Assembly (NCBI RefSeq): GCF_029227855.1
Contig: NZ_CP074356.1
Origin: Escherichia coli
GTDB taxonomy: Bacteria; Pseudomonadota; Gammaproteobacteria; Enterobacterales; Enterobacteriaceae
DNA: 64,000 nt
Reading direction: 5' to 3' (one strand)
Part shown: piece by piece, positions 46,102-62,192 of the stretch
Position numbering within the stretch: position 1 is the stretch's first letter
Layout of the letters: each line of letters begins with the position of its first letter
The notes under the pieces: generated by a model
What the model saw: the letters and a program-made list of their open reading frames with translations, nothing else
Databases searched by the model: none
What the model was told of the DNA's origin: nothing
Translations under genes and position numbers: made by a program

Positions 46102-46683
46102 ATGAATACTTTTGATAATATTGTTTTAAACAGTGAGAAATATAAAAACATTACAATTAATAACAAGGGTGAAAATAATCATATATATATTGGACAAGGT
46201 TATAAAGATAAAAAATTAGTAATAAATTTTTTAGGGCGTGATAGTGTAATTAAGTTAGGTGATAATGTAAATTTTCAGGGGGTAATTACAGTTTCAACAA
46301 ATTCAAGAGTAACCATAGGAAATAATTTTGCATCTACAGGAGGTGTCACAATTATATGCAGAGATGATTGTAATGTATCAATTAATGATGATTGTATGTT
46401 TGCAACATCAATTCTAATCAGAACGTCTGATGAACACTCAATAATAGATTTGCACACTAACGAAATAATTAATAAAAATAAAGATGTTACAATTGGAAAA
46501 CACGTCTGGATATGTGATAACGTTCTGGTTTTGAAGGGGGCAATAATTGGAAGTGGTTCAGTTATAGGTGCAAGGAGTGTTGTGACTGGTACTATACCTG
46601 AGAATAGCTTATGTGTTGGGGTTCCTGCTAGAGTAGTAAAGAAAGATATAAGATGGGATAGAAAAAGACCCTCAAAACTATAA
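46102..46683 (+). CDS. Hexapeptide-repeat (left-handed beta-helix) acyl/acetyltransferase, 193 aa
   Basis: Repetitive [LIV]-G-x-x-x-x hexapeptide pattern (e.g. VTIGKHVWICDNVLVLKGAIIGSGSVIGARSVV); strongly AT-rich coding sequence; lies at distal end of capsule region 2 in opposite orientation. Confidence 0.75.
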   Translation: MNTFDNIVLNSEKYKNITINNKGENNHIYIGQGYKDKKLVINFLGRDSVIKLGDNVNFQGVITVSTNSRVTIGNNFASTGGVTIICRDDCNVSINDDCMFATSILIRTSDEHSIIDLHTNEIINKNKDVTIGKHVWICDNVLVLKGAIIGSGSVIGARSVVTGTIPENSLCVGVPARVVKKDIRWDRKRPSKL

Positions 46684-46771
46684 TTTTAAAGGTCTGTTAT
46701 TGTCATCTTGATGATTGGTAAGGATAAACAAATGAATGTTTATCCTTGTTTTTTATTGCCCAAAATGAATT

Positions 46772-47800
46772 TTATGAATTAACTGAATAAAAACCATTAG
46801 GATAATTTAACTGCCACCTCCAGGCATCTTCTATCATATTTTCTAAACTATATTTAGCTTCCCAGCCTAACTCTTTTTTTGCTTTGAGTGGCGTTGACCA
46901 GCATTCAGCTACATCACCAGGTCGTCTTGCAACAAATTCATAATTTATGGTACGGTTAGAAATCTTTTCAAAAGTTTTTACTAGCTCCAGTACTGAGTAA
47001 CCTTTGCCTGTTCCTAAATTATACACTCTAAAGCCATTTGTTAACCATTTCTTGTTTAATGCAGATAAATGACCTGACGCTAAATCCATCACATGTATAT
47101 AATCCCTTACACCTGTACCATCTTTAGTATTATAGTCAGAACCGAAAATGTTTAACTTTTTAAATCTTCCGATAGCAACGCCACTAATAAAAGGCATGAT
47201 ATTATTAGGTATACCAACAGGGTTTTCTCCTAAGTGTCCAGAAGGATGCGCTCCAACAGGGTTAAAATATCGCAAACAAGTAATATTTAGTTTGTTATTA
47301 GCTTTGGCAATATCTTTAAGTATATTTTCTGATATATATTTTGAATAACCATAAGGATTAGTTGTTCCACCGGTTATACAATTTTCATCTAGTGGGTTTT
47401 TTTCAGGAATCCCATAAACAGTCGCAGATGAGCTAAATATTAGATTGTATACTCTATTTTTTAGCATGCATTTTACAAGATTCATAGTGCCATATACATT
47501 ATTGCTATAATATTCAATTGGCAAATCTTTTGACTCAGCTACAGACTTTAAACCGGCAAAGTGAATTACGGAGGAAATATTACATCTTGTAAAAATTTTA
47601 TTTAATTCTATTTCATCTCTAATATCAGCGTTGAAAAAAGATATTTTTTTACCTGTTATTCGTTCGACGCTTTTAATGGAGCCTATATCAGAATTGCAAA
47701 GGTTATCTATGACAACTATATTGTCATAACCATTTTCGAGTAATGCTGCAGTTGTATGAGATCCAATATATCCAGCTCCACCAGTAATGAGAATTGTCAT
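46772..47800 (-). CDS. UDP-hexose 4-epimerase (GalE/Gne-like), 342 aa
   Basis: N-terminal ITGGAGYIGSH Rossmann motif; YGYSK catalytic YxxxK; length typical of GalE; low-GC. Confidence 0.85.
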   Translation of the reverse strand: MTILITGGAGYIGSHTTAALLENGYDNIVVIDNLCNSDIGSIKSVERITGKKISFFNADIRDEIELNKIFTRCNISSVIHFAGLKSVAESKDLPIEYYSNNVYGTMNLVKCMLKNRVYNLIFSSSATVYGIPEKNPLDENCITGGTTNPYGYSKYISENILKDIAKANNKLNITCLRYFNPVGAHPSGHLGENPVGIPNNIMPFISGVAIGRFKKLNIFGSDYNTKDGTGVRDYIHVMDLASGHLSALNKKWLTNGFRVYNLGTGKGYSVLELVKTFEKISNRTINYEFVARRPGDVAECWSTPLKAKKELGWEAKYSLENMIEDAWRWQLNYPNGFYSVNS

Positions 47801-47811
47801 ATTTTTCTCCT

Positions 47812-59965: not shown

Positions 59966-59988
59966 CACAAACTCATTCAGCGACAGCG

Positions 59989-61137
59989 TTAGTCTCGGTG
60001 ATCTTCAATAACAGCCAGCAACAGTTTCAGGGTGCCGAACAGCAGGCAGCACACCAGTAACCAGCAGGCGATCAAATAAGGGATATTTGGAAAAGACGAT
60101 TCCTGCGGCAACTGTGGCGAACTGATCACTGACAGCACCTTGAGCTTACGAGCCGCTTCTACACGGGTCTTTTCAATGGAGGTCAGGGTCAGTTTGTACA
60201 GCTCGGTGTTGAACTCTACTTTTGATTTGATTTCTTCAAAATCCACCGCCATACGGTTTAGCTTGTCACCCTGCGGCGCTGTGATTTTGCTTTTTTCTTC
60301 GTCAATTTGTGCCTGCAATGACTGAATCGCATTACGCGCACTCACAACTTGCGGGGCGTCCTCACGCAGATACGTCAGCAAGTTCCGCAGGTCCGCTTCC
60401 ATCTGGATCTTCTGGCCCATCAGCGTATTCACTAACGTGCTCGCCGCCTGTGCCTGTGCCTGTGGATCCAGAACGTTGTTGTTGTCTTGATAAGAGAGCA
60501 ATTCCGCTTTGCTGGCGTCCAGACGCTGGCGTGCCTTTTCCATCTCCGTTTCTGCAAAGGCAAGCTGGTCACGCGCGATGCGATGTGACATCTCATTGAT
60601 AAAGCGCTCTGACTCTTTCAGCACGGTTTGGTTAAACTTAAGCGCAAATTCCGGGCTAAAGCCCTGCGTCTGAATATTCAGTAATCCGGTTTTATCGTCA
60701 TACGAGACGTTGATACGGTCCTTGTAGTACTTCAGGAAGCCTTCTGCGGTTTCATCCTTGCTAAGATGATTAAGAAAATCGAGCCCGCTGTGGCTAAACG
60801 CTTCACGAAAATTTAGTTGCTTATCCAGCGCCGCCAGCATATCCGGCGAGTTGATGTACTCTTTCAGATACAACGCATCTTCTGCGGAACTGGGGTTAGA
60901 GGCACCCAGAAGCAGACCAAAATTCAGGCTGCCGCTGTTTAAATCATCCGAGCGTTTAATGGCGACTTTCGACTCGCTCATATAGCGAGGCTGGCTGAAG
61001 ATAGCCAGATAGATCAGCAGCACCGCCATCGGTGCCAGAATGATGATTTTCGCCAGGTGTTTTTGGATATCTGCCAGTGAGATGGCAGACAGACGAGCAC
61101 GCATCCAGGATACGGCAGACTTCACTTTTATCAACAT
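59989..61137 (-). CDS. kpsE: Capsule export inner-membrane protein KpsE (382 aa)
   Basis: N-terminal TM, long coiled-coil periplasmic region, C-terminal TM; 382 aa. Confidence 0.9.
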   Translation of the reverse strand: MLIKVKSAVSWMRARLSAISLADIQKHLAKIIILAPMAVLLIYLAIFSQPRYMSESKVAIKRSDDLNSGSLNFGLLLGASNPSSAEDALYLKEYINSPDMLAALDKQLNFREAFSHSGLDFLNHLSKDETAEGFLKYYKDRINVSYDDKTGLLNIQTQGFSPEFALKFNQTVLKESERFINEMSHRIARDQLAFAETEMEKARQRLDASKAELLSYQDNNNVLDPQAQAQAASTLVNTLMGQKIQMEADLRNLLTYLREDAPQVVSARNAIQSLQAQIDEEKSKITAPQGDKLNRMAVDFEEIKSKVEFNTELYKLTLTSIEKTRVEAARKLKVLSVISSPQLPQESSFPNIPYLIACWLLVCCLLFGTLKLLLAVIEDHRD

Positions 61138-61208
61138 GTAACGATTATCAAAGTTTCAGTGGGGCGCAAACTCAATGAGAGACTAACCTCTCGCACCCCG
61201 TTGCTTAA

Positions 61209-62192
61209 TTAGTCGAAAATGCGCACAAGGCCAGTGACTTTATTTGCCTTGTTGGTCACCAATAACGTTGAGACGCGGTGCTTTTGCATTTTTTCTTCCG
61301 CTTCAATGATCATGGTGTCTTCCGGTAGCGTCAGCGGTTCACGTGTCATCATCTGCGCAGCCGTGGCGGATGTCAGAGAATCCTCTTTTTCCATAAAGCG
61401 ACGCAGGTCACCGTCGGTGATAATGCCCGCTAGCCCACCTTCTGCGTCTTCTACCATCACCATTCCCTGGCATCCGCTGGTGATACGTTGAATCACGGTT
61501 TTAAATGACGCATCCAGCTGTACCGCAGGAACATCATGCTGCATGACATCAGCAACGCGGGTCAGCAGGCGACGACCTAATGAACCGCCCGGGTGATAGC
61601 GCGCAAAATCATTCGGCATAAATTTGCGTTGGTGGATCATGGCAATCGCCAGCGCATCGCCGATCGCCATCGTCAGCGTGGTAGACGTTGTTGGTGCAAG
61701 ATTATTCGGGCAGGTTTCATTCGCCATGTGGAGTTCCAGCACGGCATCAGCATTTTTCGCCAGCGTGGAATTTCCATTATTGGTAATGGCGATAATTCGG
61801 TTGCCGAAATTTTTCAGTGAAGGAACTAGCTTGAGGATTTCATCCGTTTCACCGCTGGCAGAAATAAGGATCAGAAGATCGTAAGGCGTAATCATGCCCA
61901 GATCGCCATGGAAAGCTTCTGCAGGATGAATAAAGAAACTAGGCGTACCCGTAGAGGCCAGCGTCGCTGACATTTTACGACCGACATGCCCTGATTTACC
62001 CATTCCCGAAAGAATAACGTGACCTTTACAGTTCATTATCAAATTAAGGACACGCTGGTACTGCCCGGAATCCAGTTGTTTAGACAAGTTTTGTAATGCT
62101 GCGCCTTGTTCTGCCAGAGTCTGGCGAACAGAGGTAATTAGATATGGATCGATAGTACTGCTCTGGTCATCAGGTAAATGTCTTTCAGACAT
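61209..62192 (-). CDS. kpsF: Arabinose-5-phosphate isomerase KpsF (327 aa)
   Basis: Track ORF trimmed to MSERHLPDDQ; SIS domain followed by tandem CBS domains. Confidence 0.88.
   Translation of the reverse strand: MSERHLPDDQSSTIDPYLITSVRQTLAEQGAALQNLSKQLDSGQYQRVLNLIMNCKGHVILSGMGKSGHVGRKMSATLASTGTPSFFIHPAEAFHGDLGMITPYDLLILISASGETDEILKLVPSLKNFGNRIIAITNNGNSTLAKNADAVLELHMANETCPNNLAPTTSTTLTMAIGDALAIAMIHQRKFMPNDFARYHPGGSLGRRLLTRVADVMQHDVPAVQLDASFKTVIQRITSGCQGMVMVEDAEGGLAGIITDGDLRRFMEKEDSLTSATAAQMMTREPLTLPEDTMIIEAEEKMQKHRVSTLLVTNKANKVTGLVRIFD

Follow-up and report, generated by a model that had tools for sequence, protein, structure and literature searches.

Gene order, origin and identity of a co-directional group 2 kps capsule locus in Escherichia coli

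The kps capsule cluster found in the window (the whole 64,000-nt stretch of E. coli DNA analysed) departs from the classical group 2 layout, in which regions 1 and 3 converge around region 2 and kpsM lies next to gspM. In this locus region 1, kpsMT and the serotype genes run in the same direction, which raises the question of whether the order reflects an inversion, a recombinant or distinct capsule type, or a faulty assembly. The question has practical weight: in extraintestinal E. coli the K-type decides resistance to serum, susceptibility to phages and coverage by vaccines, and typing tools that expect region 2 between regions 1 and 3 truncate or miss atypical loci, a problem that the 2026 catalogues have already raised and addressed (PMC13171598, PMC13171606). 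On sequence comparison, we consider it very probable that the cluster is an intact G2A locus of the "atypical G2" kind, in which a foreign, low-GC, co-directional module is attached to canonical kpsFEDUCS within the final ~20 codons of kpsS, and that the cluster is K126 and one of the nine atypical loci of Gladstone et al. This module comprises a 409-bp leader carrying JUMPstart/ops, divergent kpsMT and a serotype cassette.

Gene content and chromosomal position

The ORF list placed kpsF-E-D-U-C-S, kpsM-kpsT, a 652-aa GT4 glycosyltransferase, an 800-aa KpsC-like/TPR/GT29-like protein and galE in this order (Table 1). Every gene from kpsF to galE lies on the minus strand, with kpsM adjoining kpsS, and a hexapeptide acetyltransferase gene at the end of the cluster lies on the plus strand, convergent with galE. 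Family scans of the translated ORFs returned KpsF/GutQ, BexC/CtrB/KpsE, polysaccharide export (KpsD), CMP-Kdo synthetase, KpsS, KpsM and ABC ATPase matches. The PGAP annotation of an identical locus in strain MRSN346647 (L001) contained the same genes with 0 pseudogene flags; kpsF is given at its annotated length there (984 nt), the mechanical ORF reaching 62228. These sources, together with strain CFT073, bear out the preliminary description in its gene order, its orientations and its contrast to classical group 2 loci.

Two features of group 2 (lineage 2A) were found: kpsFEDUCS is contiguous and includes kpsF and kpsU, and the cluster lies between the gsp (yghD/gspM) operon and pheV, with gspM on one side and tRNA-Phe on the other, as in MRSN346647. 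A third, JUMPstart/ops ahead of kpsMT with region 2 downstream of kpsT, was also present, with divergent alleles. The gspM-proximal spacer (45137-46101) held no ORF longer than 68 aa in the ORF search, and terminator-like hairpins occur on both strands at 46666-46750, between the acetyltransferase gene and galE.

Table 1 Positions of the kps genes, intergenic elements and chromosomal flanks in the window
Feature	Position	Strand	Evidence
gspM/yghD, chromosomal flank	44600-45136	+	PF04612 T2SSM; yghD in L001 annotation
Non-coding spacer adjoining gspM, 965 bp, 28% GC	45137-46101	.	
Hexapeptide-repeat O-acetyltransferase, 193 aa (K126_12)	46102-46683	+	PF00132 at 128-163
galE-type UDP-hexose 4-epimerase, 342 aa (K126_11)	46772-47800	-	PF16363/PF01370; PGAP: GalE
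800-aa multidomain transferase (K126_10)	47812-50214	-	Capsule_synth PF05159 96-332, TPR, GT29 PF00777 586-665
652-aa GT4-type glycosyltransferase (K126_9)	50221-52179	-	Glycos_transf_1; PF00534/PF13692 at residues 164-299
kpsT, divergent allele, ABC transporter ATPase	52373-53062	-	ABC ATPase family matches
kpsM, divergent allele, ABC transporter permease	53059-53838	-	NF050053 KpsM E=2.8e-51, but below equivalog cut-off
JUMPstart element with ops	53864-53900	-	ops GGCGGTAGCGTA at 53877-53866
kpsS-kpsM intergenic region, 409 bp, AT-rich (31% GC)	53839-54247	-	
kpsS, first beta-Kdo transferase	54248-55480	-	KpsS family; canonical to ~codon 390, C-terminal ~20 aa divergent
kpsC, beta-Kdo transferase extending linker	55515-57542	-	L001 annotation: capsular polysaccharide biosynthesis protein
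kpsU, CMP-Kdo synthetase	57539-58279	-	NF009905, 383.8 bits, above cut-off
kpsD, outer-membrane polysaccharide export protein	58289-59968	-	Polysaccharide export family matches; L001: polysaccharide biosynthesis/export family protein
kpsE, inner-membrane/periplasmic export adaptor	59989-61137	-	TIGR01010 BexC/CtrB/KpsE, 493.8 bits, above cut-off
kpsF, arabinose-5-phosphate isomerase, first region 1 gene	61209-62192	-	TIGR00393 KpsF/GutQ E=6.8e-102
tRNA-Phe (pheV), chromosomal flank on region 1 side	63384-63459	-	ARAGORN; L001 annotation

Breakpoints, recurrence and origin of the gene order

In CFT073, gspM, kpsM, kpsT and region 2 proved to share one strand and kpsS to kpsF to lie on the other, which is the convergent layout that the preliminary description had taken as its reference. 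The present locus shares with classical group 2 loci (K2 of CFT073; K1, K5) the site between gspM and pheV, region 1 where compared, JUMPstart/ops ahead of kpsM and the placement of region 2 downstream of kpsT. However, in the classical loci kpsMT-region 2 converges on region 1 with kpsM beside gspM, whereas here it is co-directional with kpsM beside kpsS; an unrelated 409-bp intergenic region takes the place of the classical PR3 promoter and its long leader.

Homology of the window to CFT073 stopped at 45141, 5 bp past gspM, which sets the left recombination boundary at 45141/45142, and started again at the DNA level at 54307, approximately codon 390 of kpsS. KpsS showed 98.7% amino acid identity to CFT073 KpsS over residues 1-390 and no match beyond, and the part of region 1 that was compared (54307-56000, spanning kpsS and the 3' portion of kpsC) was ~96% identical at the nucleotide level. 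Between the boundaries, KpsM and KpsT were 74.6% and 76.7% identical in amino acid sequence to their CFT073 counterparts, and kpsMT showed ~70% nucleotide identity, with the blast match on the opposite strand. GC content was 28-35% in the kpsMT-region 2 module versus 45-55% in region 1, and 34% in kpsM versus 45% in canonical kpsM. Of the 1173-nt gspM-kpsM interval of CFT073, the 33-nt JUMPstart was the sole part matched in the window. Judged by composition and homology, the module is of recombinant origin: its alleles are divergent and low in GC, and its breakpoints are sharp. These features and the separate K-type K126 agree with the earlier suggestion of a recombinant or distinct capsule type.

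The same 9.2 kb was present in four independent complete E. coli genomes at 99.9-100% identity, whose accessions were not found in the supplements of PMC13171598 and PMC13171606. The co-directional kpsS-kpsM-kpsT junction occurred in 36 of 1746 kpsS-positive genomes, also with other serotype cassettes, as in ST648, 19KM1831 and HNSQ2209. KpsM was 100% identical in amino acid sequence to that of the ST648-type atypical locus, which also has the spacer stretch at 45142-45650 (~510 bp), where the ST648 homology ends. When four atypical loci that differ in their region 2 cassettes were aligned, the kpsS-kpsM intergenic region had a mean column identity of 95%.

How the order arose can be weighed on these data. 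A recent in-situ inversion of canonical kpsMT-region 2 inside an otherwise classical group 2 locus would account for the orientation of kpsMT and region 2, which is the reverse of that in CFT073, and for the blast match to CFT073 kpsMT falling on the opposite strand. Nevertheless, kpsMT is only ~70% (nucleotide) and 75-77% (amino acid) identical to canonical alleles, canonical PR3 and its leader are absent rather than relocated, and the junction, the leader and the gspM-proximal 510 bp are common to loci with unrelated region 2 cassettes. This sharing suggests that homologous recombination exchanges a conserved alternative scaffold, and it speaks against a private inversion, which we consider very unlikely. 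An assembly or scaffolding error, the caveat attached to the preliminary description, gained no support from the data and has next to no probability: the arrangement is identical in the four independently assembled complete genomes, the junction recurs in the 36 genomes, and the arrangement appears in two independent catalogues and an ST131 study (PMC13171598, PMC13171606, bioRxiv 10.64898/2025.12.15.689991).

A group 3 or hybrid group 2/group 3 locus would also lack the classical flanking of region 2 by regions 1 and 3, as seen here. Group 3 loci (K10/K54-type) hold kpsMT inside the first conserved block: a kpsDMTE block is followed by region 2 and then kpsCS, without kpsF and kpsU. In the window, by contrast, kpsF and kpsU are present, kpsFEDUCS is contiguous, the kpsS-kpsC end is ~96% identical to group 2 of CFT073, and kTYPr lists K126 as G2A (PMC13171606), making a group 3 or hybrid assignment highly improbable.

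As possible kpsMT donors, two candidates were rejected: the group 2B example ECONIH5 and a Citrobacter IncX5 plasmid. Both have a convergent layout, and their KpsM proteins (72% and 78.5% identical, respectively) offered no clear gain over canonical 2A (74.6%).

Identity in published catalogues

The atypical layout and the exact present locus are already catalogued in two 2026 papers (PMC13171598, PMC13171606). The novelty implied by the preliminary description falls away, since co-directional reference group 2 loci have been published as "atypical G2" (PMC13171598). Gladstone et al. (Nat Microbiol 2026, Extended Data Fig. 4; PMC13171598) describe this architecture for nine K loci, and the present locus has it. 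In their gggenes table, the row set "1 KL105" gives gene starts and ends identical to those of the window from kpsF to galE, counted from 62192; KL105 is a working number in the figure input table and not the final KL number. Their definition ends at galE, without the convergent acetyltransferase gene, whereas the present locus has this gene.

kTYPr (PMC13171606) places K126 in G2A with NZ_CP074356.1 as its reference record. The K126 locus is 16,092 bp versus 16,091 bp here, and its ORFs 9-12, which follow kpsFEDUCSMT, encode 652, 800, 342 and 193 aa, as do the ORFs in the window. The InterPro/Pfam domain coordinates were identical to those of the present ORFs, with no detectable difference. 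The match to K126 is thus one of locus length, ORF sizes and domain positions rather than of alignment.

The KL112 locus of ST131 clade C (bioRxiv 10.64898/2025.12.15.689991) resembles the present one in that kpsMT runs in the direction of region 1, with region 2 on the outside, and kpsM is divergent. It is reported to differ in having lost both ops and PR3, in carrying a kpsS that is 105 bp longer together with a second kpsS, and in its association with an IS1-linked gsp deletion, whereas the present locus keeps ops, a single kpsS and gsp.

Expression and predicted polysaccharide

In group 2 loci the PR3 promoter lies ~741 nt upstream of kpsM and is followed by a long regulatory 5' UTR. Neither was found upstream of kpsM in the window, where the kpsS-kpsM intergenic region had no homology to the canonical PR3/leader except JUMPstart. 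An exact copy of the ops 8-mer core GGCGGTAG occupies 53870-53877 (minus strand), its end lying 31 nt upstream of the kpsM start codon; JUMPstart aligns with the leaders of CFT073 and of group 2B and is kept in all four atypical loci aligned. No terminator-like hairpin was found on the minus strand of the intergenic region, and a scan of 45000-54400 gave 59 promoter-like sites versus 52 +/- 8 in shuffles, a chance level in AT-rich DNA.

The intergenic region is specific to this class of atypical loci, and the promoter of kpsMT-region 2 is presumed to lie there; kpsMT and region 2 could be transcribed from it, by readthrough from region 1, or both. RfaH loaded at ops would then carry RNA polymerase across the AT-rich cassette, and the acetyltransferase gene would need a promoter of its own within the gspM-proximal spacer. 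The preliminary description had predicted a different promoter and readthrough architecture. Its promoter part stands, as PR3 and the ~740-nt leader have no counterpart; its readthrough part probably does not, because JUMPstart/ops is intact just upstream of kpsM, so that the logic of readthrough along kpsM-kpsT-region 2 is probably unchanged and RfaH-dependent readthrough from kpsM into the serotype genes probably persists.

Loss of the thermoregulated PR3 promoter and leader might also leave the locus intact but cryptic or poorly expressed, and the ST131 KL112 study voices the same concern for a related rearrangement (bioRxiv 10.64898/2025.12.15.689991). The missing PR3/leader homologue and a replacement intergenic region with no promoter signal above chance are compatible with silence. 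Yet every gene is intact, and the strict conservation of JUMPstart/ops in diverged atypical loci suggests that expression is under selection. Moreover, successful lineages from bloodstream infections continue to carry atypical loci, and an isolate with KL144, another atypical locus, is serologically K-positive (PMC13171598). We regard a cryptic locus as unlikely; the intact ORFs and the K-positive report for KL144, a different atypical locus, suggest that the present locus would produce a capsule.

In group 2 biosynthesis, CMP-Kdo is provided by KpsF and KpsU; KpsS and KpsC assemble the beta-Kdo linker, for which lyso-phosphatidylglycerol is the base, and export of the polymer falls to KpsMT together with KpsE and KpsD. 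In the PDB search, residues 75-361 of the 800-aa protein matched KpsC crystal structures (6MGD, E=2.6e-57), and its C-terminal domain gave weak sialyltransferase matches (E=0.02-0.16); the GT29 Pfam match is partial, covering profile positions 26-104 of 272. A corresponding search with the 652-aa GT4 protein returned no solved relative. For the epimerase, the kTYPr table lists K126_11, of the same length as the galE product here, with TIGR01179 at E=1.8e-131 (PMC13171606).

The K126 polysaccharide probably contains Kdo. The 800-aa GT107/GT29-like and 652-aa GT4 enzymes would polymerise the Kdo-containing chain, galactose would probably be supplied via GalE, and the hexapeptide transferase would O-acetylate the polymer.

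More tentatively, the locus may form a single PR1-driven, RfaH-extended 16-kb unit with altered control, and the K126 polymer may be a hitherto undescribed O-acetylated Kdo/galactose polysaccharide, the product of an enzyme joining a retaining GT107 Kdo transferase to a GT29-like, presumably inverting, ulosonic-acid transferase; we hold these readings to be possible but doubtful. The single unit is suggested by the direct joining of region 1 to an ops-bearing kpsMT-region 2 without PR3 and the H-NS/SlyA-responsive leader, and if real, it would imply temperature or growth-phase control different from that of classical group 2 capsules.

K6 region 2 in kTYPr has the same gene set, namely a ~655-aa GT4-like protein, a dual GT29/GT107 ulosonic-acid transferase and a GalE-like epimerase, but the proteins are distant in sequence, with 41% (652-aa protein versus K6_7), 37% and 59% amino acid identity. 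The K6-specific ORFs carry the numbers 7-9, straight after kpsFEDUCS, which we take as a sign of the classical order, and K126 has the acetyltransferase in addition. The dual-domain ORF of K6 has been discussed as compatible with a poly-Kdo product (PMC13171606).

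Structure of the locus and its breakpoints

An ORF map was drawn for window 42000-64000, and family scans were run on the ORFs. Every element in the gene list of the preliminary description was present. GC content was 45-55% in region 1 (kpsFEDUCS) compared to 28-35% from kpsM through the gspM-proximal spacer. The kps locus adjoins pheV, with an IS110-family transposase remnant as the sole intervening feature (window 62193-63383), whereas CFT073 and the ST648 strain carry island genes (CbtA/YeeU toxin-antitoxin, DUF4942, and others) beyond kpsF.

Features of the kps locus and its flanks
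Feature	Coordinates	Strand	Basis or remark
gspK-L-M (left flank)			family scan
Hexapeptide acetyltransferase	46102-46683	plus	ORF map and family scans
GalE-type epimerase	46772-47800	minus	last of the minus-strand series
800-aa protein	47812-50214	minus	KpsC-like Capsule_synth 96-332, TPR stretch, GT29-like 586-665
GT4-type glycosyltransferase, 652 aa	50221-52179	minus	ORF map and family scans
kpsT	52373-53062	minus	ORF map and family scans
kpsM	53059-53838	minus	ORF map and family scans
kpsS	54248-55480	minus	ORF map and family scans
kpsE, kpsD, kpsU, kpsC	after kpsF, in that order	minus	ORF map and family scans
kpsF	61209-62192	minus	ORF map and family scans
tRNA-Phe, pheV (right flank)	63384-63459		

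In the classical group 2 locus of CFT073 (K2), gspM, kpsM, kpsT, and the serotype-specific region 2 lie on one strand, and kpsS to kpsF converge from the other; this contrast bore out the non-canonical gene order noted earlier. A Blast comparison showed 96% identity to CFT073 through gspM, which stopped at 45141, 5 bp past the gspM stop codon, and started again at 54307, within kpsS. Residues 1-390 of KpsS were 98.7% identical to those of CFT073, whereas the final ~20 residues were unrelated, because the recombination breakpoint falls inside the gene; the C-terminus (window 54248-54310) reads ...ETNSALNNK here and ...FLFGSKSIS in CFT073. Between the two breakpoints, the only CFT073 match was kpsMT, on the opposite strand and at 70% nucleotide identity (KpsM 74.6% and KpsT 76.7% at the protein level). 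The canonical gspM-kpsM interval contains the region 3 promoter PR3 and a long leader (bioRxiv 10.64898/2025.12.15.689991); of its 1173 nt in CFT073, a 33-nt stretch (JUMPstart) alone matched anywhere in the window.

The locus is therefore not a simple inversion of the classical one, given the sharp breakpoints, the divergent kpsMT, and a PR3/leader segment without counterpart. The sequence comparison argues instead that a canonical region 1 was joined by recombination to a kpsMT-region 2 module of another, low-GC type, which supports the earlier proposal of a recombinant, distinct capsule type. An assembly error had also been considered. However, JNEC-KY178, MRSN346647, MLI106K1, and GmM066, four complete E. 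coli genomes assembled independently of each other, share the 9.2 kb between gspM and the kpsS end at 99.9-100% identity, which places the window itself in E. coli; PGAP annotated the same genes there with zero pseudogene flags. A kpsT-kpsM-intergenic-kpsS query matched 1746 of 5426 genomes, through kpsS, and 36 of these 1746 had the co-directional kpsS-kpsM junction, defined as one place covering at least 80% of the query. The same junction was found with unrelated serotype cassettes in ST648, strain 19KM1831, and one plasmid-borne copy, and an assembly artefact was therefore excluded.

The AT-rich, non-coding segment beside gspM (window 45142-45650, ~510 bp) was ~91% identical to an ST648-type atypical locus; it had no counterpart in CFT073, and an ORF check of it gave no convincing ORF. 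This segment may serve as a second conserved homology arm for cassette swaps among atypical loci.

Published catalogues and related loci

Gladstone et al. (PMC13171598) assigned an 'atypical G2' structure to nine K loci, with region 2 positioned outside regions 1 and 3. [quoted passage not shown] In the table from which their Extended Data Fig. 4 was drawn, the gene coordinates under the working label 'KL105', from kpsF (1-984) through a UDP-glucose 4-epimerase (14393-15421), are for every gene those of the window when positions are numbered backwards from 62192. In the kTYPr catalogue (PMC13171606), K126 is a G2A locus of 16,092 bp; its K-specific ORFs encode 652, 800, 342, and 193 aa, and their domain coordinates agree with those found in the window. 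The published catalogues already contain the atypical architecture as well as this particular locus, and the finding is therefore ordinary in novelty.

The nine published loci can be sorted into three or more junction classes (PMC13171598, supplementary file 10): a ~410-bp kpsS-kpsM gap, as in the window; a 155-bp gap with the kpsS_3 allele; and kpsT-kpsM convergent with region 1, with region 2 past kpsM. This diversity suggests that 'region 2 outside' layouts arose independently several times.

On E. coli HNSQ2209 plasmid unnamed2 (NZ_CP137739.1, positions 1-30268), IS1 and IS5 flank an entire kps locus of the atypical co-directional type, whose kpsM allele is the one found in the window. This 187-kb record holds IncHI-type transfer genes (trhU, trhW, trhF) and also an ordinary chromosomal block (trmB, mutY, mltC, nupG, speC, pheV), reflecting either a plasmid that captured the capsule region or a misassembly.

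Predicted transcription around the kpsS-kpsM junction

Within the kpsS-kpsM intergenic region (409 bp, 31% GC) lies a JUMPstart whose ops core is exact (GGCGGTAGCGTA, 53877-53866); the ops 8-mer stops 31 nt short of the kpsM ATG. Four atypical loci that differ in their region 2 cassettes share the whole intergenic region at 95% mean column identity, and the JUMPstart of the most diverged differed by one base. The KL112 locus of ST131 has a related rearrangement but reportedly lost ops (bioRxiv 10.64898/2025.12.15.689991). No terminator-like hairpin was found on the coding strand between kpsS and kpsM, and promoter-like hexamers in this region were not more frequent than in shuffles.

We consider that RfaH would still load at ops and drive transcription through kpsMT into the region 2 cassette, as in classical loci. 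What is altered relative to these, judging from sequence, is that PR3 and its leader are missing. The different promoter and readthrough architecture proposed in the preliminary description thus stands with respect to the promoter, but the ops-dependent readthrough element is kept. Region 1 transcripts could possibly continue into kpsM rather than collide head-on with region 2. The acetyltransferase gene and galE are convergent, with hairpins on both strands between them, and the former would have to rely on the 965-bp gspM-proximal spacer for its expression, or on gsp readthrough.

Predicted polysaccharide and relatives of KpsM

Through its N-terminal domain, the 800-aa protein matched crystal structures of KpsC (6MGD, E=2.6e-57), a retaining beta-Kdo transferase of family GT107 (bioRxiv 10.64898/2025.12.15.689991). 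Its C-terminal domain gave a partial match above the Pfam GT29 threshold and weak matches to sialyltransferase structures; the kps locus contains no sialic-acid synthesis genes. KpsF and KpsU provide CMP-Kdo. This content, along with the GT4, GalE, and O-acetyltransferase genes, favours an O-acetylated, Kdo-containing polymer as the most likely product, probably including galactose. The closest relatives in the kTYPr tables are K6 proteins (41% identity for GT4, 37% for the 800-aa protein, and 59% for GalE), and the dual GT29-GT107 ORF of K6 was considered consistent with a poly-Kdo product (PMC13171606).

KpsM showed comparable divergence from canonical 2A (74.6% identity), group 2B ECONIH5 (72%), and a Citrobacter freundii IncX5 conjugative plasmid (78.5%; NZ_CP056211.1, 48 kb), the last being its nearest non-E. 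coli relative among those compared. The ECONIH5 and IncX5 loci are both convergent, whereas the window locus is co-directional. In the compact plasmid cluster (8697-20249), kpsS-C-D-E is faced by kpsMT, a single glycosyltransferase gene, and a gene for a CatB-like acetyltransferase; kpsF and kpsU are not among its listed genes. With the NCBIfam models NF050053/NF050054, KpsS reached 399 bits where the equivalog cut-off is 600, despite its 98.7% identity to CFT073 KpsS, and KpsM reached 175 where it is 300, which is probably why PGAP gives these capsule genes generic names ('ABC transporter permease', 'capsule biosynthesis protein').
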